A stretch of DNA of 44,062 bases from a virus. The notes under the pieces are model-generated. The model did no database searches, was not told the DNA's origin, and was given only the letters and a program-made list of their open reading frames with translations. The stretch lies in IMG/VR virus record IMGVR_UViG_3300045988_030948, positions 1 to 44,062 of that record. One strand, given 5' to 3'. Of the stretch, positions 551 to 38,080 are shown piece by piece. How positions within the stretch are numbered: position 1 is the stretch's first letter; each line of letters starts with the position of its first letter. The position numbers and the translations under genes are program-made.

Positions 551-1996
551 ATGATTATCAAAAAATTAGAGTTGTCGAATTTCCAAGTAATTAAGGAGTT
601 CAACGCAGATTTTGAGGGTAATGTATATTTCATTACCGGGGACAATGAGTTAGGAAAATCCACGCTATTAAAGGCAATCGGGGCGTTATTGACCGGGAAC
701 CGGGACGCCGTGTTGCGCAATGGCGAGGAAAAAGGGTTTGCAAAAATGGTTGTAGGCGACGACGGCGAGGAATACGACGTTGAATTGCGATTTACCAAAG
801 CCAACCCACGGGGTACGTTATCAATCAAACAGAAAACAACCGGGATGCGGTCGGACAACGTAAGTATGTTGCAAAAGGTTTTCGGATATACCGATTTTGA
901 CGCCGTGGAGTTTTCCCGTTGGTCGGAAACCGCCGAGGGTCGCCGCAAGCAAGTTGAGTACGTGCGGGCGTTGTTGCCGGAAAATGTGCAAAAACGTATC
1001 GCCGAAATTGACGCCGAGGTTATGACCGTTAAGGACAAACGCAAAGAGGCAAACGCCGAGGTTAAGACGTACACGACCATTTGCACCGCCGCCGAAAAAC
1101 AGTTGAAACCGGGCGACGTCAAAACGTATGCCGAGAAAATCGACATTGCCGACTTAATGGAGGAACAAAACGAGAACGCCCGGTTGATTGAAAAAGCAAA
1201 AACCGTGCGTACCGCTTTGCAAACCCGGACGGAACAATTGGAGGCAATCCCCGGACGTTTAAAAGAAGCGGACGAAACATTGCGTACCGATTTAGAGGCA
1301 ATAGACAAAGATTTGGAAAATGCAAATAAAGAATACGAACGTATCATTGCCGAGGCAAAAAAGGATTTGGAGGCGGCAAAACAGGCACATAAAGCCAATA
1401 CAAAAAACGCTAAAGATGAACACGCCGAAACATTGGAGGTTATCGCAAAGGATAAAGCCGATTACGAAACCCGCAAGAACAACGCCGCCGAATGGTTAAA
1501 GAAATACGAGGAAAACAACCCGGAAAAATTGGATACGGCGGAACGCCTCAAACAAGTCGAGGAACATAACAAAATAAATGCGTTGGTTGTGGACTATGTG
1601 GCAAAGAAAAAGCAAAAGGACGCCGCCGAAAAGGTCGCCCAAACCCACGAAAAAACGTTGTCGGATTTACTCAAAGAACGGGAAACCCTTATTGCAAAAT
1701 CGAAATTGCCAATTGCCGGGTTGACGTTCACGGACGACGGGTTGGAATTAAACGGCGTTCCGTTTGTTGCCGGGAAAGTATCAGATAGTCAAATTATGGA
1801 GGTTGCCGCAAAACTTATCATTGCAAGCAATCCGACCGTTAAAGTATTCCGCATTGCGAGGGGCGAAAGTTTGGGCGCAAAACGTCTACAATCCCTTATC
1901 GAATTAGCCCGCAAAGAGGGTTATCAAGGCTTTATTGAGGAAGTCAAACGAGGACAGGACGATTTAATTATTGAGGAATACAGCGAAAACGAATAA
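551..1996 (+). CDS. SMC-like (RecF/SbcC/Rad50-type) ATPase
   Basis: 481 aa. N-terminus MIIKKLELSNFQ...FITGDNELGKST (Walker A). The middle is long, charged and coiled-coil-like. The C-terminus has GESLGAKR and GFIEEV (signature-like and Walker B-like). No Mre11/SbcD-like partner gene is present. Confidence 0.75.
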   Translation: MIIKKLELSNFQVIKEFNADFEGNVYFITGDNELGKSTLLKAIGALLTGNRDAVLRNGEEKGFAKMVVGDDGEEYDVELRFTKANPRGTLSIKQKTTGMRSDNVSMLQKVFGYTDFDAVEFSRWSETAEGRRKQVEYVRALLPENVQKRIAEIDAEVMTVKDKRKEANAEVKTYTTICTAAEKQLKPGDVKTYAEKIDIADLMEEQNENARLIEKAKTVRTALQTRTEQLEAIPGRLKEADETLRTDLEAIDKDLENANKEYERIIAEAKKDLEAAKQAHKANTKNAKDEHAETLEVIAKDKADYETRKNNAAEWLKKYEENNPEKLDTAERLKQVEEHNKINALVVDYVAKKKQKDAAEKVAQTHEKTLSDLLKERETLIAKSKLPIAGLTFTDDGLELNGVPFVAGKVSDSQIMEVAAKLIIASNPTVKVFRIARGESLGAKRLQSLIELARKEGYQGFIEEVKRGQDDLIIEEYSENE

Positions 1997-2002
1997 TCAA
2001 CC

Positions 2003-2023
2003 GGGGGCGGGTTCCCGTCCCCC
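2003..2023 (+). terminator. intergenic GC hairpin
   Basis: GGGGGCGG-GTTC-CCGtCCCCC (one bulged base), directly after the stop of the ATPase gene. Confidence 0.45.
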
Positions 2024-2040
2024 TTAATACAGCAAAAACA

Positions 2041-3201
2041 ATGGCATATACATTGAACGAAAATTTGAAACGTTGGGCGGAACAATACGAAACCGCCGAG
2101 TTTATCCAATCCGACCCGGTGCAATTCCCGCACCGTTACGATAGCCGGGTAAACATTGAGATAAGCGCATTTGTGACGGCGTGGATTGCGTGGGGTTCCC
2201 GCAAACAGATAATCAAAAAGGCGGATTTTATCGACCGGGAAATTTTCCACGGTGCGCCGTATCATTACATTGTCGGAACCGACACACAGGGAGCCGCCCC
2301 GGAATGGAAGCAATACAAAGGCAGTACCGAAAGTTTTTACCGAACGTTTACGTTTGGCGATTTCCACGACCTTTGCGCCCGGTTGTATGATGTGTACACG
2401 TCGGCGGAAAGCATGGAGGCGGCAATAAAGAAAACCCACGAAACAAACGGCGAAACCGCATTGTCAACATTGCAATCGTTGTTCGGTTCCGTTAATGGTA
2501 TCCCGGATTTTGAAACCCAATCAGCGTGTAAACGGTTGTGTCTATTTTTGCGTTGGATGTGTCGCAAGGGTTCCCCGGTTGATTTTGGATTGTGGACGGT
2601 ATGCGAACCCCGTAATTTGATTATCCCGTTGGATACACACGTACATAAACAGGCAATCCGGTTGGGGTTGACGACACGACGGACGTCGGATTTGCGCACC
2701 GCCATTGAGATAACCGACCGTTTCGCCGAGATATTCCCGGACGACCCGACCAAAGGGGATTTTGCATTGTTCGGTTATGGGGTTAATAATGGCAAAGTTT
2801 CCCCGGTTACAGAGGAACCCGAAAAAGAAAAAGAGCAACCAACCCCGGTTGCGGATTTGAGTATTGCGGACGTTCTGAAAATGCCGTTGTTCTTTGACAA
2901 TGTGAAAACCCAATTAATGAGCCTTTGGAACGACCGGGAAACCGTCCGCAAAAAAGCCGCAAAGGATAACCAACGATTGAAAGCGCACGTTATCGACCGT
3001 ATGCACAATGCCGGGGATTGGGAGCCGGGAAAATTCGTTGTTATTTTCGCAACAATATTGGATAAAGTGGCAACCGGGTATTCGTCAAACGAACGGGAAT
3101 TTATCCGGGCGGTTGGAATGACAGCGTTTAATATTACCATGCAAAAGTTAATCGACGATGAAAAAAAGAGAGATAACAGCGACGGGAACGATAAACAATA
3201 A
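2041..3201 (+). CDS. DUF2400/TIGR02757-family protein (HhH-GPD-like) with an extra C-terminal region
   Basis: 386 aa. Motifs DPVQFPHRY, KRLCLFLRWMCR, VDFGLW, IIPLDTHVHKQAIRLGL and DPTKGDFALFGYG match the family as I remember it. PLDTHV...RLGL resembles the Nth-type VDTHVxRVxxRLG helix. The last ~130 aa are unassigned. Confidence 0.75.
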   Translation: MAYTLNENLKRWAEQYETAEFIQSDPVQFPHRYDSRVNIEISAFVTAWIAWGSRKQIIKKADFIDREIFHGAPYHYIVGTDTQGAAPEWKQYKGSTESFYRTFTFGDFHDLCARLYDVYTSAESMEAAIKKTHETNGETALSTLQSLFGSVNGIPDFETQSACKRLCLFLRWMCRKGSPVDFGLWTVCEPRNLIIPLDTHVHKQAIRLGLTTRRTSDLRTAIEITDRFAEIFPDDPTKGDFALFGYGVNNGKVSPVTEEPEKEKEQPTPVADLSIADVLKMPLFFDNVKTQLMSLWNDRETVRKKAAKDNQRLKAHVIDRMHNAGDWEPGKFVVIFATILDKVATGYSSNEREFIRAVGMTAFNITMQKLIDDEKKRDNSDGNDKQ

Positions 3202-3214
3202 CGGCGGGTTGGCA

Positions 3215-3589
3215 ATGTACATGGGGGAATTAAACGAGTTTTTCAAAGGTTGGAAAGGTTCCCGCATTATTGCCCGCTTTATTGTTGCGTCGCCCGGTTC
3301 GTCCGAGGCTTTGAAAGGGTATTATTTTAATTACGTTGTGCCGACGTTTAAGCACGCAATTTGGGAGGCGGGCGAACGTCTTACAGAGGAACAAACCGAA
3401 CGACGTTTGCGGGAGTTTTCCCCAATTATGTACGTTGAACGGGTCAACGAAGAAACGGGGGTATATTCCCACGATTTGCGCACCGTGGCGGATTTGTCGA
3501 ACGCCGAGTTAATCGAACATATCGAAACGCTCAAACAGATTGCCGCCGAGGAATACAATACATTTATTGACGACCCCCGAACGTTGTAG
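3215..3589 (+). CDS. hypothetical protein (124 aa)
   Basis: The track ORF is 3158..3589. The ATG at 3215 avoids a 44-nt overlap with the upstream gene. No motif recognised. Confidence 0.55.
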   Translation: MYMGELNEFFKGWKGSRIIARFIVASPGSSEALKGYYFNYVVPTFKHAIWEAGERLTEEQTERRLREFSPIMYVERVNEETGVYSHDLRTVADLSNAELIEHIETLKQIAAEEYNTFIDDPRTL

Positions 3590-3591
3590 GT

Positions 3592-3777
3592 ATGTTTTGC
3601 AAGTGTAACGGAAAACGGAAAAATTACCCGTTGGCGGGTTGGCGGATTATCCGCCACGAATACACGCCAAAGCATTACAGCCGGATAAAGTGTTTGCGGT
3701 GCGGGTGCGTTTGGATTACACGGGCAAAATATGTTGAACAAACCCCCAACGAGGACGGGCAAAAAAGACTTTTTTAG
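3592..3777 (+). CDS. small Cys-rich (zinc-ribbon-like) protein (61 aa)
   Basis: CxC...CxxC arrangement (CKC, CLRC). Tightly packed between neighbouring genes. Confidence 0.45.
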   Translation: MFCKCNGKRKNYPLAGWRIIRHEYTPKHYSRIKCLRCGCVWITRAKYVEQTPNEDGQKRLF

Positions 3778-3778
3778 T

Positions 3779-3985
3779 ATGGAATTAAACGACAAATCCC
3801 CGATGCCGCAAGGTAAATTTAAGGGGCAACCGATGGAAAACGTACCGTATTGGCATTTGCTTTGGTTAGAGAACCAACCATATTGCCGCAAAGATGTAAA
3901 ACAATACATTGAGGAAAACCGGGACGTTTTGGAGTTGGAGAAAAAGCGGGATAAATACCGCAATGAGAGCGAAAACAGTAATTAA
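3779..3985 (+). CDS. DUF3820-like protein
   Basis: MPQGKFKGQPMENVPYWHLLWLENQ resembles the MPFGKYKG...VP..YL.WL motif of the DUF3820 family. I chose the internal ATG of ORF 3731..3985 so that it abuts the upstream stop. Confidence 0.55.
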   Translation: MELNDKSPMPQGKFKGQPMENVPYWHLLWLENQPYCRKDVKQYIEENRDVLELEKKRDKYRNESENSN

Positions 3986-4004
3986 CGATTTAATATTTAA
4001 GGTT

Positions 4005-4838
4005 ATGCAAAAAATTGATTTGAAAGATGTTTGTTTCTTTGATTGTGAAACAACCGGGGTTCCGGCAAAGGGTTTGAAATGGGATGCGGATTTTGAGCAA
4101 TTCCCGCACGTCGTCCAATTGGCATGGTCGTTGGGCGATAAGGAAAAAAGTTATATTATCAAACCCGATAATTACGAGATACCCCCGGAAACAACCGCAA
4201 TTCATGGTATAACAACCGAACGGGCAATTGCCGAGGGCGTGCCGTTTGCCGAGGTTGTGGACGAATTTTTAGCGGATGCCAACGCCGCCCCGCTTGTATG
4301 TGCGCACAACATTTACTTTGATAGTTCAATGTTAAAAGCAAACGTTTTGCGCTATTGTGGACGGGAATATTACGACGCACACGTTGAGGACGCATTACAT
4401 AAGGGCAAACGCATTGATACAATGATGAAAACGATTAAGTTTGTCGGCGCATTGTATTCAAACGGGCGACCGGGAAAATATCCCAAATTAGAGGAATTAT
4501 ATAGTAAGTTATTCCCCGGCGAAACATTCCCGGCGCATGACGCATTAGAGGACATAAGGGCGTTGCGCCGTTGCGTCCCGGAATTGGTCGAATTAGGGAT
4601 TATTGAGTTGGCGCAAAAGGAATACCCGGCGGAACAACTCAAAGCGAAATTTGAGCCGGAAAAGCCCCAAACCGGGGGTATTGAGTTTAACGACCCGAAC
4701 CCCGTAACGGAACCAATCGGAACCGGGAACCCCAAACAGGAACCCGCACCGGAGCCGGAACCAATCCCGGAGCATCAACGCCCGGCGGTCGCCCGGAATA
4801 AGACGACAAAGGATTTGTTGGACGAAAGCGAATTTTAA
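4005..4838 (+). CDS. DnaQ-like 3'-5' exonuclease (DEDDh family)
   Basis: Has FFDCETTG (Exo I), AHNIYFDSSML (Exo II) and HDALEDIRAL (Exo III, DEDDh). The C-terminus is Pro/Glu-rich and ends in LLDESEF. The start could instead be 3963. Confidence 0.85.
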   Translation: MQKIDLKDVCFFDCETTGVPAKGLKWDADFEQFPHVVQLAWSLGDKEKSYIIKPDNYEIPPETTAIHGITTERAIAEGVPFAEVVDEFLADANAAPLVCAHNIYFDSSMLKANVLRYCGREYYDAHVEDALHKGKRIDTMMKTIKFVGALYSNGRPGKYPKLEELYSKLFPGETFPAHDALEDIRALRRCVPELVELGIIELAQKEYPAEQLKAKFEPEKPQTGGIEFNDPNPVTEPIGTGNPKQEPAPEPEPIPEHQRPAVARNKTTKDLLDESEF

Positions 4839-4842
4839 GATT

Positions 4843-5730
4843 ATGGCAAAGCGAACAAAGGACGAATTTACACGGGATTGGATAATTGAAAATTCAATTG
4901 ACGTGTTGAGCCAATACGAAAACGGTATATTGACGATACGTGCGTTGCATTATCAGTTAGTTAGCCGGGGAATGACGAACACGTTACAGCATTACAAACG
5001 TGTTGTCGCCGCAATGGAGGTCGCCCGGTGGGACGGTCGGGTTGATTTCGAGGCGTTCAGCGACCGAGATAGGGCAATGTGTGGAACGACAAGAGCCACG
5101 GAAACCGTATTGGAGGACAAACAGGACGAAGCCAAACGACAGGTCGGATTATGGATGCGTTCGTATGGCAAAAATCGTTGGGAAAATCAACCGTATTACC
5201 CCGAAATTCTTATTGAGAAAAAAGCATTAGAGGGCGTTTTTGCGAAACCGTGCGCCAAATGGGATATTGCGGTTGGAGCGTGCAAAGGTTATCCGTCGTT
5301 GACGTTCTTATATGAGTTGTCCGAGCGTTTACGGGACGCCCAAAGTAAGGGTAAACAACCGATTATATTATATTTCGGCGATTACGACCCGTCCGGCGAG
5401 GACATACCCCGGTCGATTGGGGAAAACCTGCAAAAGTTCGGCGTTTACGATGTGGAAATACGCCGTATTGCCTTAATGGAACAACAGGTTATCGAATGGA
5501 AATTGCCGCCCGCCCCGGCAAAAGAAACGGACAGCCGGACGGCGAATTGGGACGGATTGGGACAGGTCGAGTTAGACGCCGTAAAACCGGAAAAATTGAT
5601 TTCCATGTTGAACGATGCGGTTAACGAGATATTCTACCAAGTTTTGTACGACGAATTAATTACACAGGAAGCCGAGGAACGGGAATTATTCCAAGCCGAG
5701 TTAAAACGATACGTCGAAAACGATTTGTAA
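4843..5730 (+). CDS. Topo VI subunit A / Spo11-like winged-helix + Toprim protein (stand-alone)
   Basis: 295 aa. Contains RALHYQL (candidate catalytic Tyr in a winged helix), ILIEKKALEGVF (Toprim Glu), CKGYPS and LYFGDYDPSGEDI (DxD), in Top6A order. No Top6B/GHKL gene is present. Confidence 0.7.
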   Translation: MAKRTKDEFTRDWIIENSIDVLSQYENGILTIRALHYQLVSRGMTNTLQHYKRVVAAMEVARWDGRVDFEAFSDRDRAMCGTTRATETVLEDKQDEAKRQVGLWMRSYGKNRWENQPYYPEILIEKKALEGVFAKPCAKWDIAVGACKGYPSLTFLYELSERLRDAQSKGKQPIILYFGDYDPSGEDIPRSIGENLQKFGVYDVEIRRIALMEQQVIEWKLPPAPAKETDSRTANWDGLGQVELDAVKPEKLISMLNDAVNEIFYQVLYDELITQEAEERELFQAELKRYVENDL

Positions 5731-7875: not shown

Positions 7876-8733
7876 ATGTGTATGGGAGCGATAAACGGAC
7901 GGGTTATTTATAGCCCAAAGGGTAAAGCCGGGGAATATGCCGAGAATGCCGCCAACTTTTACGTTGGTTGTTCAAACGATTGTACGTACTGTTATTTGCG
8001 CAAAGGTCGTGGCGCAAAAGTGTTGGGAGGCAATCGCCCGGAGTTGAAAAAGACGTTGCGGGAATACCCGTATGCGTTGGATATATTCACGAACGAATTA
8101 TTGAAGCATAAGGACGAATTGCAGAAAACCGGGTTGTTCTTTTCATTCACGACCGACCCGTTGTTGCCGGAAACGCAAAGGTTGACCCGCCAAGCGGTCG
8201 GCGTTTGCCAACGTAACGGCGTCCCGGTTAAGATATTGAGCAAATGCGCCGAGGGGATAAACGTATTTATCGACTTTGCCGAGGCGTCCGAGGGTTGGGA
8301 CGTGTCCCGCATTGCCATTGGTTCGACGTTGACCGGGTGCGACGAATTAGAACCCAACGCAAGCCCAAACAAGATGCGTATAAACGCATTGGCACGGGCG
8401 AAACGCCACGGGTTCCGCACCTTTGCAAGCGTGGAGCCAATCCCGCCGGGTATGTTTGACCGGGCGTTTGCCGTAATTGCTTTGTCGTATCCGTTCGTTG
8501 ACCTTTTCAAAATCGGATTGCAAAGCGGTTGCAGATATACCAAACGGGATACGTTGGCATTCTATCAAACCGTAACGGAATATTGGGAGGCGCACCCAAA
8601 GAGTACGCCCCGAATATATTGGAAAGATAGTTTTGTAAAGGCGTCCGGGATTGAACGGGAATTGTTGCCCGTCCATTGCGTCCCAGCAAATTGGGATTTG
8701 TTTAACGAAAACAGGAACGAAAATGCAGTTTAA
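7876..8733 (+). CDS. radical SAM protein, SplB/COG1533 (DNA repair photolyase)-like
   Basis: CX3CX2C cluster in NFYVGCSNDCTYCYLRKG, followed by SFTTDPLLPE (compare TDPYQP in COG1533 proteins). Confidence 0.75.
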   Translation: MCMGAINGRVIYSPKGKAGEYAENAANFYVGCSNDCTYCYLRKGRGAKVLGGNRPELKKTLREYPYALDIFTNELLKHKDELQKTGLFFSFTTDPLLPETQRLTRQAVGVCQRNGVPVKILSKCAEGINVFIDFAEASEGWDVSRIAIGSTLTGCDELEPNASPNKMRINALARAKRHGFRTFASVEPIPPGMFDRAFAVIALSYPFVDLFKIGLQSGCRYTKRDTLAFYQTVTEYWEAHPKSTPRIYWKDSFVKASGIERELLPVHCVPANWDLFNENRNENAV

Positions 8734-27258: not shown

Positions 27259-30060
27259 ATGAATCTAATATATGATTTTTATATTGCTACGGATACAAAT
27301 ATATTTAACCCGTATTTATCAGATACAAAGTTAAATACATTAATGCGTAGTGCCGATTTTGTGGATAATTCTAATTACAATACAAGTGGCAAAATACCGG
27401 TTATTCCCGGACAACGTATAATAACAAATATATATTATACAATTGCCATATTTAATGCAAATGATGGACGTACATTTTATAAACAAAATATAACAAATGA
27501 AAATAATTTAAGTGTTATTATTCCGCCAAATTCAACTTATATGCGTATTTGCGTTAATGTGTCGCAATGGAATTTATTAAATGTAAAATCTTTACGGCTT
27601 AGCAAACCAACATATAAAGATGATTTAGCAAAAGATTATGAATTAGAAACAAATCAACGTTTTTATAGGGCTAAATTATCCGGCAAAATATCGTTTATTA
27701 AAAATGATTTTGATTATATAGATAATTTGCCATTTGATACAACATTTTATTTGTATATATATCGTTCAAATGACTTTGGCAATATATGGGATTTATATTA
27801 TGTTGGAAAATTCAGCAAAACAGATTGTACATTTAATAATGATGATAAAAAGGTACAATTGCAACCGGAAACGTTGGACGAATATAACGACGTTTTGGCG
27901 GGTTTGGAAAAGGAATATAATTTGATACCGTTAGCCCCTGAGATTGAACGCTTATTGGTTCAAAAACGCCCGTTAATTCAAATCTATATTCCCGGCGATA
28001 GTATTGTTTCGTGTTTTTTGGGCGGTTCTTATTGGGAGCAGGACGCCAACGCCACGACCGACCGCAACGCACTTATCAATACATATCATTTTGCTTTGTG
28101 CAATCTGTTAAAGGAAATAAACGTAACAGGTAGTTCGACGCCAAATGTAAATGCGTTGTATACCGGGCGTATGAGTGTTACAGGAACCAATGTTTTTACG
28201 GGTACATTATACCCGGATGTTTCAAACGGTTATTATATCCGGGCGTCGCAACAATACCAACCGCCATTTTGGGGCGTTATTACTTACGAAATTGTCCGGT
28301 CGTCGGATAATGTTGTTTTATTCCGTTATCAAAATACAAGCCCCGGCAATCAACCATTTGACAATGTGGAATTTAATTTTACCGCCGTGTCCGGTTCCGG
28401 TTCGTCGGGAACCCCGCACGCAGAAATGGCAACGTACAATATATACGCCCGGTATTTGTTGGATGTAACCACGATACAGGGATTAAATACATACGAGTTG
28501 CCAAGCGATGATATTGTTGATTACAACCGTAATTATCGCCGGGCAATTGGTTACGCAATTGATGTAGGTTTTATTTCAAACAATCATTCAACCACGCCGA
28601 GCGAATGGGGACGACGGGACGACGGCACATATTTTCAACCGCCTTATTCTATTTGGGGACAAACATTTTATCCAATAGCCCGGTCAACGTGGCGTTATGC
28701 GTCTATTTGGTTCGGATATTATATATTGGATGAAAATTTGGAAGTTGCCGGACGTAAGACATACACGTTGCGGGATGCGTACCCCGTTGGGTCTGTTATT
28801 CAATCATTGCTCAATCAGTTTGCGCCTGGTATTACCCATAAAGAAACGGCGGAATATAGCCAATTTTTATACGGGGGTAATAATCCCGTTGCATACGGTC
28901 AAAATTTCCGATTGTTTGTAACGCAAAAGTCTAACATATTGGTTGGCGATTATCAGCAACCCGCCCAAAAAGCGCAAACGACGTTACAACAATTTACCAA
29001 TATGTTACGGGATTGTTTCCGTTGCTTTTGGTATATTGAGGACAACAAATTTAAGATTGAGCATATAAGTTGGTTCCGCAATGGCGGTTCCTATTCCGGC
29101 AATCCGGTTATTGGAACCGATTTAACACAATTGGAAAATATCCGTAACGGCAAAAAATGGGGGTTCGCAACGTCGGAATATTCATTTGATAAAGTGGATA
29201 TGCCGGAACGGTTCCAATTTAAGTGGATGGACGACGTAACGCAAGGTTTTGAGGGGTTGCCGATGCAAGTTATAAGCAAATATGTAACGGCGGGTAAAAT
29301 TGAGGACATAAATATTTCAAATTTTACGTCCGACGTTGATATGATGATGTTAGCCCCCGGCGAAATGAGTAATGACGGGTTCGGCTTATTTGCCGCCGTA
29401 ACCGCTAACGCACTAACAAACGACGATAGCGGATTGTATCCGGGATTTGGAGGTACGAGCGGAACAAACGGATTGACAACGCCGACGTATGGTATACGCC
29501 CGGAGTGTGTCGGACGGGCGGCGGTTCTTACGTTTGTGCCTTATTCAACCGGAGGAACCGGAACGGGGCTAATTGTATTTTACGATAGTTCCGGGGTTGT
29601 TATTTCAACACAGGGTAATTTTACAGCCGACGGAACGACAAAGCAAATAAACGTAACGATACCAACCGCCGCAACTGCAATTGGGTTAACTGTTACCGGA
29701 ACCGTATCGGCGTCGGTTTATAGACTTAACGTACCAAGCCAATACGAATTGCCATATATTAAAACGTCGGTAAATGGAAATAATTACTTTTTGCAAAACG
29801 GGTATTTAGCGTTTATCAATTTGCAACCGAGTTATTGGACGTATGATTTACCCGCCCGACAGGTTGAAATAAACGGGTCAACTTATTATGCAAATGGGAT
29901 TGAGAGAAAGAAAAAGCAAACGTTGACGTATCCCATGTATGACGACCCAAACCCGGTGCAATTGGTTAAAACCTATATTGGTAGCGGGGAAATAGATAAA
30001 ATAAGTATAAATTTGCTTTCACGTTCGGCAAAAACAACATTGAAATATGATACAGAATAA
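27259..30060 (+). CDS. distal tail / baseplate protein (933 aa)
   Basis: Starts 2 nt after the tape measure stop. The first ~210 codons are markedly AT-rich. Domains near the N- and C-termini resemble the repeat domain of the fibre gene. Confidence 0.6.
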   Translation: MNLIYDFYIATDTNIFNPYLSDTKLNTLMRSADFVDNSNYNTSGKIPVIPGQRIITNIYYTIAIFNANDGRTFYKQNITNENNLSVIIPPNSTYMRICVNVSQWNLLNVKSLRLSKPTYKDDLAKDYELETNQRFYRAKLSGKISFIKNDFDYIDNLPFDTTFYLYIYRSNDFGNIWDLYYVGKFSKTDCTFNNDDKKVQLQPETLDEYNDVLAGLEKEYNLIPLAPEIERLLVQKRPLIQIYIPGDSIVSCFLGGSYWEQDANATTDRNALINTYHFALCNLLKEINVTGSSTPNVNALYTGRMSVTGTNVFTGTLYPDVSNGYYIRASQQYQPPFWGVITYEIVRSSDNVVLFRYQNTSPGNQPFDNVEFNFTAVSGSGSSGTPHAEMATYNIYARYLLDVTTIQGLNTYELPSDDIVDYNRNYRRAIGYAIDVGFISNNHSTTPSEWGRRDDGTYFQPPYSIWGQTFYPIARSTWRYASIWFGYYILDENLEVAGRKTYTLRDAYPVGSVIQSLLNQFAPGITHKETAEYSQFLYGGNNPVAYGQNFRLFVTQKSNILVGDYQQPAQKAQTTLQQFTNMLRDCFRCFWYIEDNKFKIEHISWFRNGGSYSGNPVIGTDLTQLENIRNGKKWGFATSEYSFDKVDMPERFQFKWMDDVTQGFEGLPMQVISKYVTAGKIEDINISNFTSDVDMMMLAPGEMSNDGFGLFAAVTANALTNDDSGLYPGFGGTSGTNGLTTPTYGIRPECVGRAAVLTFVPYSTGGTGTGLIVFYDSSGVVISTQGNFTADGTTKQINVTIPTAATAIGLTVTGTVSASVYRLNVPSQYELPYIKTSVNGNNYFLQNGYLAFINLQPSYWTYDLPARQVEINGSTYYANGIERKKKQTLTYPMYDDPNPVQLVKTYIGSGEIDKISINLLSRSAKTTLKYDTE

Positions 30061-30907
30061 TAATTTAAGCGTGTTGCCGTGGTACACCTCAATATCAGAG
30101 CAAAACCACCGGAAAAGTTATGCGTATGGCAATATATACCCATTGTTTACGCCTGCAAACAAGTTATTGCCATTTCAAATAATGAGAACGACCCGGACAA
30201 ATGCGATTACGTCGGTACGTCTATATAATCGGGACGGTTCGTTGTTTGCAGATATAACCCAATTTATGAACCAAACCGGATTGCAAGTTGTCCGGTTTGC
30301 CTCAATGGGTTATGACGTTATTGTTTATCCGGGTATTTTGCCAATGCCGATAAATACCCCGGACGGGATATATTACGCCACATTATCCGACGGCGTACAA
30401 ACGTGGTATTCTGAAATGTTTACTATTGTGCAAGATGTTAGCGGGTATCTTAAAATTGAGTGGTACGATATAGAAAACGCCGTATTTGATGCCGGAACAA
30501 TAGTGTATCAGAACCCGCAATTTAAGAACGTTTTGTATCTTTGCACCGAGTTAGGAAAACCCGAATATCAATTTGAGGAAGAGGGCGAAAACCGGGACGG
30601 GTATTTTTTCCCGGAAAAACAAATTAGTGAAAAGACATATCATTGCATTTGTTTAGCCCCGGAATTTCTTTGCGACGTAATGCGGTTAATCCGAATGAGT
30701 GATTACGTAACCGTAACCGACAAATACGGACGAATATATGATTGCGACACATTTTTAATTACCCCAAAATGGCAAACGCAGGGCGATTTGGCAAGTGTTG
30801 AAATTGAGTTTGAAACCGCAACCGTCGTTAAGAAGATAGGACGAGGTTATATATTACAAACAAAGGGAGATTTTAACAACGATTTTAACAACGATTTTAA
30901 CAATTAA
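30047..30907 (+). CDS. tail/baseplate protein (286 aa)
   Basis: ORF overlapping its upstream neighbour by 14 nt. The C-terminus is GDFNNDFNNDFNN. Confidence 0.55.
   Translation: MIQNNNLSVLPWYTSISEQNHRKSYAYGNIYPLFTPANKLLPFQIMRTTRTNAITSVRLYNRDGSLFADITQFMNQTGLQVVRFASMGYDVIVYPGILPMPINTPDGIYYATLSDGVQTWYSEMFTIVQDVSGYLKIEWYDIENAVFDAGTIVYQNPQFKNVLYLCTELGKPEYQFEEEGENRDGYFFPEKQISEKTYHCICLAPEFLCDVMRLIRMSDYVTVTDKYGRIYDCDTFLITPKWQTQGDLASVEIEFETATVVKKIGRGYILQTKGDFNNDFNNDFNN
30869..30904 (+). repeat. 3 x 12-nt in-frame tandem repeat (gattttaacaac)
   Basis: Encodes DFNN three times at the extreme C-terminus. The third copy ends in t instead of c. Confidence 0.85.
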
Positions 30908-30912
30908 AAAAA

Positions 30913-33450
30913 ATGGGAACTTACGAAGTATTAAAACATGCTATTTCCGATGTTATAAAAACAAATGGAAATCAAGAAATTACGGGACAATTGACGCAAA
31001 ATGTATTAGTTGCAATTGTAAACGCATTGGGTAATAATGCGTTATTTGCCGGAATAGCGCAAACAAATACAGTTCCGGGAACGCCTGACGGTAATGTGTT
31101 TTATTTAGCAGCAACAAAGGGCATTTATACAAATTTTAATGCTTATGAGGTTACGGATAAACTAACTATTTTTAATAATAAAACAGGTAATTGGGTTGCC
31201 TCTGAAATTGATGTTGTAATTACGTCGGCATTGGATGATGTTAAAAATAACATCTATGTATATGATTATGCAGCCTTAATAAGTTTGTCGCAAGAATCCG
31301 GCGCATTAATAGAAACGGGAATTGTAGACCCAACACCAACGGGATATTATGTTAGAAAATACGATATATCCGGTTTGTCAAATATTGCAGTAACCGGACG
31401 GTCGGGATTAGGCGGATATTGTTTGCTATGTTTTTATAACTCAAACAATGAGTTTATAAGCGCACAATATATAGGAACGCAAACAAATTATTCTCAAATG
31501 GTTATATCCGTTCCAAGTGGAGTACAATTTATAAAAATATCCGGTAATGGGTCGTATTTACCCGCTTGTTATTCCGTTCAATCGCAATTAGCTTTTTACA
31601 CAAAAACAGAAATTCCGACTGTTGTAGCTAATTTAACAACACAAAAAGCCGATAAAACAGATATATATAATATTACGTCAAGCAACACGCAATTATCTTT
31701 AGATAGCGTTCAAGAAAATTACGCATTAAAATCAAATGGTAATGTAGAAGCAAATACAGGATGGTTTATAAATAAATATATAACTACAAATAAAACATCT
31801 GTATTGGTAACAGGTCGTTCGGGTGCATCTTCTTTCTGTTTGGCTTGTGCATTTGACGCCAATAACAATGTATTACAAGCCTTTCAGGTTGGAATGAGTA
31901 CTAATTATACTAAATTAGTAATCAATCTACCAATTGGAACCGCTTATGTAAAAGTTTGCGGAAATACAACAACTATGCCAAATGCGTTTGAAACTCAATA
32001 CACATTAAAATTTTACACAAAAGAGGAATCGGACGAAAAATATGCAACAAAAGAAGAGATTGCAGATAAAGCAGAAAGAAGCGATATATATATAAATGAA
32101 CCACAAATTATTGAGGGATTAACAGTTGTGCAAGGTTATTATCCATTGGCGAGTACGGGAGTTATTATAGCTAATTCGCAATGGTCGTATATTGAATATA
32201 ATATTCAACCAGATGATGTTTTATTTGCAACGGGTTTTGTTCGTCCAAGTGCAACGGCATTAGCCGTTTACAAAGATGCAAACGACGCATATATTGGTAA
32301 TCAATTTGTCGGAGCCGGAACAAATACAAATTACGATAAACAATTATTGACTATTCCCGCAAATGCAGCAAAAGTATTAATAACAGGTTCTTCAAACACA
32401 GAACCACAAACGCAAAATCGCCCTTTATTGTACAAAGGAGTAGAACAATTGGCATTTTATCAAAAAGATGAAACGTTAAGTACCGAGGAAATAGAACAAA
32501 AAATTGCCGAAACAACGCCTAATTATTGGAATCAAAAAAAAATATGGTGGTGCGGAACTTCTATTCCGGCGGGCGGTTATCCTCAATTAGTCGGTCAAAT
32601 GCTAAATTGTACCGTAAATAATCGTGCGCAAGGTTCATCCGGTTGTCGTCGTTCAACATTAAGTGGAGATTTTACGGGTATGCAATGGCAAAATATGGCA
32701 TATTCATTAAGTCAAACAGCCGAGGAAAAGGAATATATTATTGCTAATTGGGCTACAATACAGCCTATATTAATTAGCGGTGCGCCTACTACATTAAGCA
32801 CCTCGGAACAAACATTGATACGTAGTTGCACATTTGAACAAAGATTGTTGCCGTATATCAATGAATCAGATTTATTTGTTTATGACCACGGACACAATGA
32901 TTGGAAATATAATAAACCGTCAAATTTTGGAGGTGGTTCAGATATTGGCGTATTACCAACAGTTGAAAACATACAATCGGGATTATTGGCGGAAGATACA
33001 TATATGACGGCTAATAATAATGCGAAATTAGTTGAGTTATTTGGCGATTTATCCAAAATACCCAATCTTAATAATTGGATTGCCTCAATTAATCGTAATT
33101 GTTTTATTGGTGCAACTAATTTTATTATGATGATTATTTTGAAAAACAAACCGCATGGACGTATTGCAATGGTATCAAATAACCGTCTTAGTAAACAAGG
33201 ATTAATTGAGGCACAATTGTTAAATTCGGAAAATTGGTTTATACCAATCGCAAAGGTTTATGAATATTTAATGTATTCAAATTTTGTAATACCCGGAACG
33301 TCAAACTATTGGGGCGATGCAAGGGCAAACGATTTGACGGTTTTCGACTTGTATAATAAAGACAGAGTACACCCAAGTTCAGATACAACGGGCGATGCAA
33401 ATAGACTTTATGCGGGTATATTATCGGAATTTATTAAAAAAATAAGATAA
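30913..33450 (+). CDS. tail fibre / receptor-binding protein with three tandem ~140-aa domains and a C-terminal SGNH (GDSL-like) esterase domain
   Basis: 845 aa. The repeats are aa 116-252, 253-393 and 394-530, each ending in xFYxKxE and xDIY. SGNH blocks are WWCGTSIPAGG (I), DHGHNDW (III) and DRVHPS (V). The gene is AT-rich relative to the genome. Confidence 0.75.
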   Translation: MGTYEVLKHAISDVIKTNGNQEITGQLTQNVLVAIVNALGNNALFAGIAQTNTVPGTPDGNVFYLAATKGIYTNFNAYEVTDKLTIFNNKTGNWVASEIDVVITSALDDVKNNIYVYDYAALISLSQESGALIETGIVDPTPTGYYVRKYDISGLSNIAVTGRSGLGGYCLLCFYNSNNEFISAQYIGTQTNYSQMVISVPSGVQFIKISGNGSYLPACYSVQSQLAFYTKTEIPTVVANLTTQKADKTDIYNITSSNTQLSLDSVQENYALKSNGNVEANTGWFINKYITTNKTSVLVTGRSGASSFCLACAFDANNNVLQAFQVGMSTNYTKLVINLPIGTAYVKVCGNTTTMPNAFETQYTLKFYTKEESDEKYATKEEIADKAERSDIYINEPQIIEGLTVVQGYYPLASTGVIIANSQWSYIEYNIQPDDVLFATGFVRPSATALAVYKDANDAYIGNQFVGAGTNTNYDKQLLTIPANAAKVLITGSSNTEPQTQNRPLLYKGVEQLAFYQKDETLSTEEIEQKIAETTPNYWNQKKIWWCGTSIPAGGYPQLVGQMLNCTVNNRAQGSSGCRRSTLSGDFTGMQWQNMAYSLSQTAEEKEYIIANWATIQPILISGAPTTLSTSEQTLIRSCTFEQRLLPYINESDLFVYDHGHNDWKYNKPSNFGGGSDIGVLPTVENIQSGLLAEDTYMTANNNAKLVELFGDLSKIPNLNNWIASINRNCFIGATNFIMMIILKNKPHGRIAMVSNNRLSKQGLIEAQLLNSENWFIPIAKVYEYLMYSNFVIPGTSNYWGDARANDLTVFDLYNKDRVHPSSDTTGDANRLYAGILSEFIKKIR

Positions 33451-33902
33451 TGCAGGAACGCAACATTATTAACGGAATGACTACGGCAGTAGTCGCACCG
33501 TTATTAGACTTTTACAATAGCCTAATACCTTTTTTGGTATTGGCTATTGTCTTAATTTTTGTCGATAGTCGTTTCGGCATCGCCGCCGCAAAGAAGCGAG
33601 GGGAACCAATCCGCACGTCCCGCAAATGGCGTCGGGCAATAAATAAGTTGGTCGATTATATTTGTTGGGTTACGTTGGCGGGGTTGTTCGGTCAAACGTT
33701 CGGTACGATATTAGGGATACCGGTATTATCCGGGTTATTGCTGTTAATCGTGTACGGTATCGAAATTTCAAGTTGTTTTAATAATTATTTTGAAGCAAAG
33801 GGAATAAAAAAGAAAATAAATGTATTCAAGTTATTTAACCGCCCGGAGGTCGAACAATGTATTGAGGACGTACCGGATAAAGAAAAGGAGGTAAACGAAT
33901 GA
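33450..33902 (+). CDS. holin
   Basis: 150 aa with several TM segments (LIPFLVLAIVLIFV, ICWVTLAGLFG, VLSGLLLLIVYGI) and a charged C-terminus. Lies directly upstream of the endolysin gene. Confidence 0.75.
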   Translation: MQERNIINGMTTAVVAPLLDFYNSLIPFLVLAIVLIFVDSRFGIAAAKKRGEPIRTSRKWRRAINKLVDYICWVTLAGLFGQTFGTILGIPVLSGLLLLIVYGIEISSCFNNYFEAKGIKKKINVFKLFNRPEVEQCIEDVPDKEKEVNE

Positions 33903-34489
33903 AACCAATTGTTTTATTAGACAACGGACACGGCAAAGAAACCGCCGGGAAGCGTTCCCCCGTTTGGGGCGACGGGTCGCAACTGTTTGAATGGGAGTTT
34001 AACCGGGATATTGTGCGCCGTATTGCCGAAAAGTTGGAAGCGGACGGCATACCGTACCGGGTATTAGTCCCGGAGGAAACCGACATATCGTTGGTTGAGC
34101 GTGTAAAACGAGCCAACGAGATTGCCAAAGAGAACAACGGCAAAGTATATGTATTAAGCATACACGCCAACGCCGGAGGCGGTACAGGTTGGGAGGTTTA
34201 CACGTCGCCGGGGCAAACAGCGTCGGACGCAATCGCAACCGTATTTTTTGAGGAAGCGGGACGGGAATTTGTGCCGGACGGTTGGCGGATGCGTTCCGAC
34301 TATTCCGACGGCGACCCGGACAAAGAAGCAAATTTTTATATACTAACAAAAACGACGTGTCCGGCAATCCTTACGGAAAACTTTTTTATGGATACCGAAA
34401 AAGATTGCCGTTTTATAATGAGTGAGGACGGACGGGAACGTATCGCCAATATGCACGTCGCCGCAATTAAAAGGGTAATAACGTTATGA
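33899..34489 (+). CDS. N-acetylmuramoyl-L-alanine amidase (endolysin)
   Basis: LDNGHGKETAGK..., YVLSIHANAGGGTGWEVY and FYILTKTTCPAILTENFFMD match amidase_3-type motifs. Confidence 0.85.
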   Translation: MKPIVLLDNGHGKETAGKRSPVWGDGSQLFEWEFNRDIVRRIAEKLEADGIPYRVLVPEETDISLVERVKRANEIAKENNGKVYVLSIHANAGGGTGWEVYTSPGQTASDAIATVFFEEAGREFVPDGWRMRSDYSDGDPDKEANFYILTKTTCPAILTENFFMDTEKDCRFIMSEDGRERIANMHVAAIKRVITL

Positions 34490-35205: not shown

Positions 35206-35766
35206 ATGGAAATTTGGAAAGATTTAACCGGGTATATAGGAATATACCAAGTTAGTAACAACGGGCGTATAAAATCATTATCCCGTAAAATAGTGAGAAA
35301 GAACGGGCAATTTGCCAAAGTTAAAGAAACGATATTAAAACCCGGAACCGACCGTTACGGTTATTCTTTTGTTGTATTATGCAATGATAGGGTAAAGAGA
35401 ACAACGGCAATTCATAGATTAGTTGCGGCGGCTTTCATTCCTAACCCGGACAATTTGCCGGAAATAGACCATATCGACGGCGACCGAGCCAATAACCATG
35501 CGACTAATTTACGTTGGTGTACCCGCAAACAAAATTCCAATAACCCAATATCAATTGAGCGTTACCGAAAAGCCGGAATAATTCAAAAGCCATATAAACA
35601 ACTGCAAATTCCGGTTCAGCAATTAAAGGACGGTTTTTTGATTGGTTCCTATTCAAGTATAAGAGAGGCGGAACGAGCAACCGGAATAGCGCATACAAGT
35701 ATAAGCCGAGTAATACGGGGGACATTAAACACGGCGGGCGGCTATAAATGGAAATATAAGGAGTAA
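35206..35766 (+). CDS. HNH homing endonuclease (NUMOD4 + HNH_3 + C-terminal HTH)
   Basis: EIWKDLTGYIGIYQVSNNGRIKS (NUMOD4), IDHIDGDRANNHATNLRWCTRKQN (HNH) and IREAERATGIAHTSISRVI (IENR/NUMOD1-like). Free-standing, lying between the lysis block and P3. Confidence 0.9.
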   Translation: MEIWKDLTGYIGIYQVSNNGRIKSLSRKIVRKNGQFAKVKETILKPGTDRYGYSFVVLCNDRVKRTTAIHRLVAAAFIPNPDNLPEIDHIDGDRANNHATNLRWCTRKQNSNNPISIERYRKAGIIQKPYKQLQIPVQQLKDGFLIGSYSSIREAERATGIAHTSISRVIRGTLNTAGGYKWKYKE

Positions 35767-36351: not shown

Positions 36352-36702
36352 ATGAAAACAGATTTAAACGGCGTAAGCCAATGCCCCAAAGGAACCGAGA
36401 ATTACGAAACGTTTTATACGATGGTTAGACGTAAAAGAACCAAGTTAATACAATACGATTATCGTAGCGAGGACGGCGAATTGTTCACGTGTGTAAAGCC
36501 TACATTAACGGAATGCCGGAAAGCACGGGACGAACATTTTAAACCCGTCGTTGTGGTTTATACCCCGGAACAATTCAAAGAATTGGGATTTGATGGCGAA
36601 ATTGCAAAGTACATGAGAGAACACACCAATACGGCAATCGTCGGCGATGTTCCCGGATTGACCGCCACGTTATCCGTTACCGGACGCACAAAGATTGGAT
36701 GA
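36352..36702 (+). CDS. hypothetical early protein (116 aa)
   Basis: Clean ORF. No domain recognised. Confidence 0.55.
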   Translation: MKTDLNGVSQCPKGTENYETFYTMVRRKRTKLIQYDYRSEDGELFTCVKPTLTECRKARDEHFKPVVVVYTPEQFKELGFDGEIAKYMREHTNTAIVGDVPGLTATLSVTGRTKIG

Positions 36703-37185: not shown

Positions 37186-37437
37186 ATGAATAAAACGAAA
37201 CGTTACCGATTAAGTCAAGAAATGTATAAGATAATCCAAAATGCAAACGGCGGGTTATTTTTGCTTTATACCCGGCACAACCCCGGCGATGTGTTAAACC
37301 TATTATTGGACGGCAACGATATTGGGTTGCTTTGTCAAGTTGAGAGCCGACACGACCAATATTATAAGTTTTGCAAAGTGATTAAGGAGGGCAAAAATGA
37401 TATTAACAGAGGAACAACGGGAAATATTGAAAGGTAA
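37186..37437 (+). CDS. hypothetical early protein (83 aa)
   Basis: The start lies in the conserved TTTAGAGCGATGAAT context. Confidence 0.55.
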   Translation: MNKTKRYRLSQEMYKIIQNANGGLFLLYTRHNPGDVLNLLLDGNDIGLLCQVESRHDQYYKFCKVIKEGKNDINRGTTGNIER

Positions 37438-38080
37438 GATTTGCCCGTATTGCCATATTCCAACCGAGTACAAAAATAGTATTGAGGTTTACGGCATTGA
37501 TTACGGAATGATTTACTATTGCCCTAAATGCCGGGCGTATGTTGGCGTTCATGCGGGAACCGACCGGGCAAAGGGTCGATTAGCAAACGCCGAGTTGCGC
37601 CGATGTAAGATTGAGGCGCACCGATATTTTGACGAAATATATAAGCGTAAATTAATGAAGCGTTCCGAGGCTTACAAATGGTTATCCGAGCAATTGGGAT
37701 TACCAACGGAATACACGCATATAGGAATGTTTAACCCGGAAACGTGCGCAAAGGTCGTGGACGTTTCAAAAAAATATTTGGAAACCATGCGATTTGCATT
37801 AAGAAACCAACATAAAATAAAAGCGGCTTTTGAGCCAAACGGGGATAAAATGTTATCCCGGATAAAAGAAAGTTTAACCCGGTATTTTTCCGCCGACCGT
37901 TCAGAGTTCCCGGAGGGATATAAAGAAATTGAATGCGATTTTAACCAATTGCCGGGGGAACCGTACCCGACTATTGCAATAAACGACGTCGGAAACGCCA
38001 ACCGTATGATTGAGTTCTATGTTACCGGGAAACAATACGACGTTTACCATGTAGCATTTAAGGGATTTACAAAGGGATAA
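37397..38080 (+). CDS. DUF3268-like zinc-finger protein
   Basis: CPYC...CPKC is followed by RLANAELRRCKIEAHRYFD, as in the DUF3268 family as I remember it. TAAGGAGG lies 6 nt upstream. Confidence 0.55.
   Translation: MILTEEQREILKGKICPYCHIPTEYKNSIEVYGIDYGMIYYCPKCRAYVGVHAGTDRAKGRLANAELRRCKIEAHRYFDEIYKRKLMKRSEAYKWLSEQLGLPTEYTHIGMFNPETCAKVVDVSKKYLETMRFALRNQHKIKAAFEPNGDKMLSRIKESLTRYFSADRSEFPEGYKEIECDFNQLPGEPYPTIAINDVGNANRMIEFYVTGKQYDVYHVAFKGFTKG

Follow-up and report, generated by a model that had tools for sequence, protein, structure and literature searches.

A DUF2400 protein with remote similarity to helix-hairpin-helix glycosylases is fused to a conserved small protein in phages of Bacteroidales

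We analyzed a 44,062-nucleotide stretch of viral DNA, positions 1 to 44,062 of IMG/VR record IMGVR_UViG_3300045988_030948 (hereafter ‘the window’), with a focus on the open reading frame (ORF) at 2041..3201. The window belongs to a tailed Bacteroidales phage in the PDS1/AS73P1 group. The ORF encodes a bona fide DUF2400 protein that has a remote but consistent relationship to helix-hairpin-helix (HhH) glycosylases and carries a conserved small phage protein as a C-terminal fusion. An identical 386-amino-acid protein is on record (P0001). The gene is divided as follows:

2041..3201, + strand: whole ORF, with an ATG start and 386 amino acids plus stop, comprising a DUF2400 domain, a linker and a small helical phage domain
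2041..2790, + strand: DUF2400/TIGR02757 domain (residues 1-250) with an HhH-glycosylase-like predicted fold, supported by hidden Markov model (HMM) matches, AlphaFold2, Foldseek, hhalign and the ratio of nonsynonymous to synonymous substitution (dN/dS)
2791..2856, + strand: acidic, Pro/Glu-rich, flexible linker (residues 251-272), with a predicted local distance difference test score (pLDDT) of 63-70 and an isoelectric point (pI) of 4.5
2857..3198, + strand: C-terminal helical domain (residues 273-386), the constant product of this genomic slot, supported by stand-alone homologues, BFVD matches and synteny

A sequence-only reading of the window had assigned the N-terminal part of the protein to DUF2400/TIGR02757, and both family models match it far above their cut-offs. 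The Pfam model (PF09674) covers residues 25-248 (profile positions 1-224 of 225; E-value 1.6e-63, 215.2 bits against a cut-off of 25). The NCBIfam model (TIGR02757) covers residues 21-249 (profile positions 1-228 of 229; E-value 4e-65, 219.8 bits against a cut-off of 139.2). Neither profile extends to residues 251-386. The two strings on which that reading drew, IIPLDTHVHKQAIRLGL (residues 194-210) and DPTKGDFALFGYG (residues 235-247), are present in the translation. No PHROGs v4 family corresponds to the protein or to either of its domains.

The DUF2400 family includes 2633 representatives at 50% identity (E-values up to 0.001). Most members are single-domain proteins of about 250 amino acids, and the stand-alone bacterial members have no partner domain. 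In the sampled genomes, DUF2400 proteins are found mainly in Bacteroidales and recur in the phages of these bacteria and in one archaeal provirus. The window protein shares a full-length match and every family-invariant residue with other DUF2400/TIGR02757 proteins but differs from them by its linker and by a 115-residue C-terminal phage domain.

The C-terminal domain is basic (pI 8.9) and is predicted to form five helices (residues 275-279, 282-308, 317-324, 329-340 and 349-377; pLDDT 96-98). A search with the C-terminal 132 residues identified many stand-alone proteins of about 118 amino acids on phage-sized contigs (E-values down to 1e-66). These proteins are 56-93% identical to the domain and have 29 invariant columns in common with it. 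At the structural level, BFVD matches are small uncharacterized phage proteins (114-134 amino acids) with template modeling (TM) scores of 0.80-0.87 and 23-34% identity. We found no relative of the domain in Pfam, PHROGs or the PDB, including a search of the PDB with a profile of the domain. The C-terminal extension had been described as novel; it is instead a conserved small phage protein that is also encoded as a separate gene.

Close homologues of the complete protein are 375-419 amino acids long. At least six clusters at 50% identity contain both domains, and the linker varies from 5 to 76 residues across the other fusions. Six further DUF2400 proteins are longer (P0233, P0260, P0267, P0277, P0287 and P0340; 449-610 amino acids), with 200-370 C-terminal residues that have no Pfam match. 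We dropped these proteins as a functional clue, because their Pfam-less C-terminal regions are unrelated to the C-terminal domain described here. In two 289-amino-acid proteins (P0286 and P0357), the C-terminal domain is joined at the linker to a membrane-anchored N-terminus, which by eye we take to be TonB-like, and a Pro/Glu-rich region (PF28545). Their contigs are only 1.5-1.8 kb, so P0286 and P0357 may be either real fusions or chimeric assemblies across low-complexity sequence.

A variable DUF2400 cassette in a constant phage gene slot

We identified 273 IMG/VR stretches that encode the C-terminal domain and compared gene order in the 80 best of these. All 80 loci share the order SMC-like ATPase, C-terminal domain with or without DUF2400, and NinB-like gene. 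Presence or absence of DUF2400 was scored in 77 loci: the 74 of these 80 with sufficient downstream sequence, together with the window, PDS1 and BKO1-3. The fusion is present in 37 of the 77 loci and the C-terminal domain alone in 40, and most flanking genes share 77-100% identity with their window counterparts. The C-terminal domain is thus the constant gene of the slot and the DUF2400 part is a variable module. This is the reverse of the proposal, made from the sequence alone, that a further domain had been added to a DUF2400 gene.

The limits of the module are visible at the DNA level. Relative to three loci that have only the C-terminal domain (L002, L026 and L033), homology with the window ends at 2016 and restarts at 2863, and about 44 nucleotides with a separate start codon replace the following element:

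2017..2862, + strand: variable cassette of about 846 nucleotides (ribosome-binding region, DUF2400 domain and linker), defined by the break in DNA homology with loci that lack DUF2400

Other relatives have an in-frame deletion of the enzyme core and retain the first 19-160 residues. We identified at least 10 different in-frame deletion end-points among recorded metagenomic proteins (P0155, P0161, P0165, P0170, P0171, P0174, P0177, P0178, P0200, P0359, P0361, P0395 and others, and positions 3001-3396 of locus L173), some of which also remove part of the C-terminal domain; these variants are a small minority of recorded copies, are reported here without a baseline from other genes and may include assembly artifacts on short contigs. 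The P0174 variant occupies the same slot, and its junction coincides with the 8-bp direct repeat AACCGCCG. PDS1-type genes contain this repeat twice, once close to their 5′ end and once within the linker.

Substitution patterns point to exchange of the module as well as loss. Both domains are under purifying selection, with a dN/dS ratio of 0.08-0.29 for the DUF2400 domain and 0.09-0.47 for the C-terminal domain. Synonymous divergence disagrees between the two domains in pairwise comparisons (for example, 0.52 versus 0.08 for locus L004), which argues that the two halves have been exchanged by recombination. The DUF2400 module is thus an accessory, and its exchange and its repeated loss, on several occasions through in-frame deletion, suggest that its value is circumstance-dependent. 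The purifying selection on it shows that it is functional where it is kept. We also considered a trade-off with a DNA methyltransferase gene located 3′ of ninB in BKO1-3. The methyltransferase is carried by only 2 of the 77 loci, and no correlation can be claimed.

The two genes that bracket the slot are:

551..1996, + strand: SMC/Rad50-like ATPase, 481 amino acids, the constant upstream neighbor (Pfam AAA_15, AAA_23 and AAA_29; phrog_1499, E-value 3e-54)
3158..3589, + strand: NinB-like ORF, 143 amino acids as listed, the constant downstream neighbor (phrog_23774, E-value 3e-44; annotated as NinB in PDS1 and BKO1-3)

In every syntenic viral locus long enough to include it, the ATPase lies directly 5′ and is 63-91% identical. 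It is a P-loop ATPase of the SMC/Rad50/RecF type; its scores exceed the cut-offs of the AAA_15, AAA_23 and AAA_29 models, miss that of SMC_N, and fall far short of those of the Rad50, RecF, RecN and SMC models. The label ‘SMC-like ATPase’ that the sequence-only reading attached to this neighbor is thus a fair one. The position of the C-terminal domain between the ATPase and NinB-like genes never varies, which suggests that the domain is part of an ATPase/NinB-like apparatus.

We searched 50,697 phage records with the window protein using tblastn and identified matches in 17. Five of these are full-length (75-89% identity): Alistipes phage AS73P1, Parabacteroides phages PD491P1 and PDS1, Bacteroides phage C1_85S2P and an unannotated fecal contig. 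The gene is already annotated as ‘N-glycosylase/DNA lysase’ in PDS1 (gp24) and C1_85S2P, and gp24 is not discussed in the PDS1 paper. PDS1 gp24 and its counterparts in AS73P1 and C1_85S2P share the architecture of the window protein and the gene order SMC-like ATPase, fusion, NinB; they differ merely as sequence variants and in linker length. Phages of the LoVEphage type (~71 kb) encode a DUF2400-only protein that is 46% identical to the window protein over residues 5-250. In one of these, BI-TP1, the gene lies amid genes for DNA methyltransferases, radical SAM proteins and PAPS-reductase-like proteins. Conversely, Bacteroides phage BKO1-3 encodes gp6, a 118-amino-acid protein in the identical slot between the SMC-like and NinB genes, which matches the window protein over residues 272-385 with 75% identity. 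Gp6 and the other stand-alone proteins of about 118 amino acids have no DUF2400 module and possess their own start (MEVKEM...) about 44 nucleotides past the homology break.

A phage DUF2400 copy is therefore rare overall, as had been supposed, yet regular in two groups of gut phages: it is standard in the PDS1/AS73P1 group and present as a DUF2400-only gene in the LoVEphage type. The fusion gene was already deposited and loosely annotated in isolated phages. What the present analysis adds is the architecture of a constant partner with an exchangeable enzyme domain, an assignment of candidate catalytic residues, a Qng1-like alternative and a natural deletion series. In a separate lineage, the pleolipovirus-type Archaeoglobus profundus pleomorphic provirus 1 encodes a 419-amino-acid DUF2400 protein (gp05; L164, 1027-2286; E-value 6e-30) with its own uncharacterized C-terminal region, and DUF2400 is thus also found in archaeal mobile elements.

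Predicted fold and candidate active-site residues

AlphaFold2, run with a 95-sequence alignment, modeled the whole protein with a mean pLDDT of 93.9, with softer prediction only at the linker and the final residues. The DUF2400 domain alone was modeled with a pLDDT of 96.0 and a predicted TM score (pTM) of 0.93. In Foldseek searches of the PDB, HhH-superfamily enzymes account for all of the top 17 matches of the whole protein and for 30 of the top 31 matches of the DUF2400 domain alone. M. jannaschii Ogg (3knt) was matched with an E-value of 0.063, a probability of 0.99 and TM scores of 0.43/0.51. Other top matches include D. radiodurans EndoIII-3, endonuclease III with DNA (1orp and 1orn), human and mouse OGG1, C. 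acetobutylicum Ogg, and Qng1/DUF2419. MutY appears from rank 33 on. The predicted fold of the DUF2400 domain is most similar to HhH glycosylases, and this similarity is consistent but remote. Archaeal AGOG, the N-glycosylase/DNA lyase whose name is used for PDS1 gp24, was absent among the 25 Pfam families listed at E-values up to 5 and among the 50 Foldseek matches shown per search.

Sequence comparisons of the family point in the same direction. We scanned 89 DUF2400 members singly against Pfam and found weak matches to HhH-GPD (Pfam accession PF00730) in 18 of them (best E-value 8e-4), while every other family was matched by two members at most. A DUF2400 family profile retrieved endonuclease III chains from PDB sequences only at E-values of 0.2-0.3, aligning iiPLDTHV.rtA.elgL against aiPVDTHVHRIANRLG. 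A match of a family profile to NDC80 (E-value 0.09) was dismissed as chance. We then compared an 83-sequence DUF2400 profile with an endonuclease III (Nth) profile built from eight sequences (E. coli plus seven plasmid- or chromid-borne homologues, 30-73% identity) using hhalign. The profiles align over 36 columns (probability 79%, P = 1.6e-5), placing DUF2400 residues 195-235 on Nth 135-170 and Asp198 on the catalytic Asp138 of E. coli endonuclease III. The register is unchanged against Nth alone (P = 0.009).

The alignment and the conservation of individual residues single out three codons:

2158..2160, + strand: Glu40, candidate active-site acid, suggested by its invariance
2530..2532, + strand: Lys164, at the start of helix 164-174, candidate HhH lysine, with an equivalence suggested by conservation and not by alignment
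2632..2634, + strand: Asp198 (of PLDTHV), candidate catalytic aspartate, based on invariance, hhalign and alignment with the endonuclease III VDTHV motif

Conservation was assessed in family alignments of 83-95 diverse members and in an alignment of 121 phage sequences (120 homologues plus the window protein). Eight residues are invariant in 83 diverse members of the family (E40, W172, R175, D181, W185, D198, D235 and D240), and Lys164 is present in 86 of 90. Together these nine residues are each kept in 116-121 of the 121 aligned phage sequences; Glu40 and Lys164 are present in all 121 and Asp198 in 120. Conservation of such a charged and aromatic set is a pattern typical of an active site. 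The sequence-only reading had proposed a conserved aspartate downstream of the HhH-GPD-like motif. A candidate aspartate exists, but hhalign identifies it as the D of PLDTHV itself, which is preceded by the near-invariant Pro196.

The assignment of the lysine is less direct. Lys164 begins a helix ahead of a long loop to Asp198, at a distance of 34 residues. Classical HhH-GPD enzymes have about 18-19 (18-20) residues between the lysine and the aspartate. In Qng1, the corresponding residues, K199 and D231, are 32 residues apart (PMC9881137). Given this spacing, we only infer that Lys164 is the HhH lysine. Two further conserved residues, Asp235 and Asp240, are located in the last helix of the DUF2400 domain. 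In OGG1, Gln315 and Phe319 contact the base. In Qng1, Asp298 and Trp302 do so (PMC9881137). By analogy with both enzymes, Asp235 and Asp240 may contact the base.

Candidate activities of the DUF2400 module

We examined the neighborhood of DUF2400 genes in 77 mostly Bacteroidales chromosomal loci, found with a 16-sequence alignment that returned almost only Bacteroidales. In eight or nine Parabacteroides/Tannerellaceae loci, DUF2400 lies in a likely operon between genes for an AlkD-type DNA_alkylation protein (Pfam accession PF08713) and a LOG family protein (Pfam accession PF03641). AlkD-type and LOG enzymes are both N-glycosidases. The AlkD-DUF2400 gap is -8 to +37 nucleotides, and the DUF2400-LOG gap is -20 to +6 nucleotides in seven of eight loci and 204 nucleotides in one. 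The trio is found around positions 3250-5350 of loci L103, L107, L109, L115, L118, L120 and L125 (also L108, L134 and L106). RarA/MgsA is encoded one to three genes from DUF2400 in 10 chromosomal loci, usually two genes downstream. Other chromosomal neighbors include a glycosyltransferase and, presumably, a glutaminyl-tRNA synthetase, which was identified by eye from its sequence.

We favor, with moderate confidence, a two-module protein in which the DUF2400 part is a DNA-acting HhH-type N-glycosylase tethered by the C-terminal domain. Residues 1-250 would then be a divergent member of the HhH glycosylase superfamily that cuts an N-glycosidic bond, with Asp198 as the putative catalytic carboxylate and Lys164 as the putative HhH lysine. 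Invariant Glu40, Asp235 and Asp240, along with aromatic residues, would line the base pocket. The substrate would most likely be a damaged or modified base in DNA. The flexible acidic linker would tie the enzyme to the basic helical domain of about 115 residues. Since the slot between the SMC/Rad50-like ATPase and NinB-like genes always encodes this domain, the domain may place the glycosylase at the replication/recombination machinery of the phage.

Several observations lead us to favor DNA as the substrate. The gene sits among replication and recombination genes and is fused to a basic domain of the recombination module. The conserved family motif is of the endonuclease III/MutY type. In other genomes, the BI-TP1 gene lies amid DNA methyltransferases and an AlkD-type repair gene is located directly 5′ of DUF2400 in Parabacteroides-type chromosomes. 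We also count the pI of the DUF2400 family in favor of DNA (median 8.5; 54 of 83 members above 8), as it is similar to that of Nth sequences.

Compared with endonuclease III, MutY and Ogg, the window protein shares an all-helical predicted fold, a PLDTHVxxxAxxLGL block that aligns on VDTHVxRVxNRLG, and a conserved upstream lysine. A number of findings set it apart from these enzymes or weigh against a DNA glycosylase, however. The Foldseek matches are weak (E-values of 0.06-0.6, TM scores of 0.29-0.51, root-mean-square deviations of 6-12 Å), and none reaches an E-value of 1e-3. Sequence searches of the PDB with the window protein and with DUF2400 family profiles returned nothing significant, and the window protein has no match to PF00730 even at E-values up to 5. 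The HhH-GPD resemblance reported from the sequence alone therefore holds insofar as the fold matches HhH glycosylases first, but the relationship is remote. The profile-profile match is limited to 36 columns, and Lys164 falls outside them. The hairpin region, SVNGIPDF within LQSLFGSVNGIPDFETQSACKRL, is longer than and distinct from the canonical LPGVG, and the Lys-Asp spacing of 34 contrasts with about 18 in classical endonuclease III-type enzymes. No cysteine cluster of the iron-sulfur type found in endonuclease III and MutY is seen after residue 250. The DUF2400 domain of the phage protein is slightly acidic (pI 6.0), in contrast to the family median. The highest query-normalized TM score belongs to Qng1, a free-nucleotide enzyme, and the other neighbor in the conserved operon is the LOG-family nucleotide N-glycosidase. 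The chromosomal survey found no widely conserved neighbor of DUF2400 (the largest neighbor cluster includes 14 of the 77 loci). Finally, the sequence-only reading was not aware of an established function for the family, and our literature search found no published function or enzymatic data for any DUF2400/TIGR02757 protein.

Some of these findings would fit an N-glycosylase that acts on a free nucleotide or nucleoside, through which the phage salvages or destroys a particular, possibly modified, nucleotide. Qng1/DUF2419, likewise once a ‘DUF’, acts on queuosine-5′-monophosphate. Qng1-specific β-hairpins block the DNA cleft of its HhH glycosylase fold, which serves a mononucleotide instead (PMC9881137). 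Qng1 structures (7u1o and 7ulc) are among the best fold matches of the DUF2400 domain (query-normalized TM scores of 0.49-0.50, probabilities of 0.96-0.97), and the long Lys-Asp spacing of DUF2400 resembles that of Qng1 (34 versus 32 residues; PMC9881137). DUF2400 also has a small β-hairpin (residues 98-104) bearing a near-invariant Arg101, and the phage domain is not basic. The Parabacteroides-type operon provides one neighbor for each reading, the LOG-family gene just 3′ of DUF2400 for a nucleotide substrate and the AlkD-type DNA glycosylase gene for DNA. We nevertheless consider a nucleotide substrate unlikely. DUF2419 is not one of the 25 Pfam families listed for the scan of DUF2400 members, of which 18 matched HhH-GPD, and the PLDTHVxxxAxxLGL block is an endonuclease III/MutY-type motif. 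Fusion to a constant recombination-module protein and surroundings rich in DNA metabolism suit DNA better. To our knowledge, Qng1 is not known from phage recombination modules. The DUF2400 domain of the window protein continues into a linker and has no free C-terminus.

A DNA glycosylase could also serve an offensive or counter-defensive role, by stripping a host-specific modification, damaging host DNA or shielding the phage from defense, and this would explain why the module comes and goes between close phage relatives. Presence and absence between near-identical flanks, clean boundaries and repeated in-frame loss are a pattern of host-dependent accessory genes, and the mismatch in synonymous divergence between the two domains (as in L004) indicates module exchange. 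The BI-TP1 gene lies in a region rich in DNA methyltransferase, radical SAM and PAPS-reductase-like genes. Against such a role, deletion variants are few among recorded copies and have no baseline from other genes, no correlation was found with the sole methyltransferase checked, and no defense-related annotation was noted, although this did not include a search of the PADLOC library. The majority of bacterial homologues are found in ordinary chromosomal contexts, which suggests a housekeeping activity. We thus regard an offensive or counter-defensive role as quite improbable. Alternatively, the DUF2400 domain may never have been catalytic, or may no longer be, and would instead bind DNA or protein within the SMC-like/NinB recombination apparatus, as would be compatible with the absence of a known activity, the non-canonical hairpin and the weak structural similarity. 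This we think very unlikely, given that the charged and aromatic set is invariant or nearly so across the 2633-representative family and in the phage copies, that one of its residues aligns with the catalytic aspartate of endonuclease III, and that stand-alone bacterial members of about 250 amino acids exist without a partner domain.

The most speculative extension, to which we assign a similarly low probability as to the offensive role, combines several of these elements. DUF2400 would be an HhH-fold N-glycosylase of new specificity for a guanine-like or modified DNA base, or for a modified nucleotide. As an exchangeable module, it would be docked via the C-terminal domain onto the SMC-like/NinB machinery and directed against a host-dependent modification or defense, and its gain and loss would be the record of an arms race.

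The analysis yields a testable hypothesis in which DUF2400 is an HhH-fold N-glycosylase whose catalytic candidates are Asp198 and Lys164, and close phage relatives with and without the module, together with the in-frame deletion variants, provide natural control material. With activity on DNA, DUF2400 may represent a base-excision enzyme that has gone unrecognized in gut anaerobes and their phages; with activity on nucleotides, DUF2400 would be a second Qng1-like case. The fusion is also an example of an enzyme domain that is exchangeable while its partner, a small conserved phage protein, stays fixed. These findings do not overturn current understanding.

Other features of the window

All of the neighboring ORFs examined are on the + strand. 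The 44-nucleotide spacer between the ATPase stop and the start of the DUF2400 ORF contains a potential RNA structure:

2003..2022, + strand: GC-rich hairpin with an 8-bp stem and a UUCC loop, predicted by RNA folding (-16.6 kcal/mol)

The z-score of this hairpin is only -1.4, and no T-run follows it. Two relatives, L002 (5951-5974) and L173 (~2962-2985), keep a hairpin with other stem sequences (z-scores of -3.4 and -2.9), and the pairing thus seems conserved. At the other end of the gene, the NinB-like ORF overlaps the DUF2400 ORF, which stops at 3201, by 44 nucleotides. Starts at in-frame ATGs at 3215 or 3221 would abolish this overlap, and the NinB of BKO1-3 is annotated as a shorter protein (124 amino acids).

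The wider surroundings encode a DnaQ-type exonuclease, a member of a PHROGs ‘topoisomerase’ family, an HNH protein, a counterpart of the single-stranded DNA-binding protein annotated in PDS1, and a radical SAM protein. The radical SAM protein (7876-8733) contains a CSNDCTYC motif, and its Pfam match falls just under the cut-off. It is kept at 82-97% identity in all PDS1-group phages, including BKO1-3, which lacks DUF2400. Dulem virus 36 encodes a distant relative that carries the annotation PA0069-family radical SAM protein. We rejected a functional link between DUF2400 and this downstream gene, because it is core to the phage group and unrelated to the radical SAM protein gp92 of BI-TP1.

Toward the far end of the window, an ORF at 35206-35766 has the domain composition of a homing endonuclease, with NUMOD4, HNH_3 and NUMOD1. 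ORFs at 36352-36702 and 37397-38080 match DUF3873, a Bacteroides family, and the zinc-finger domain DUF3268. The GC content is 0.36-0.37 at 30001-34000, compared to 0.43-0.48 elsewhere. This region includes an 845-amino-acid ORF (30913-33450) and may be a mosaic acquisition.

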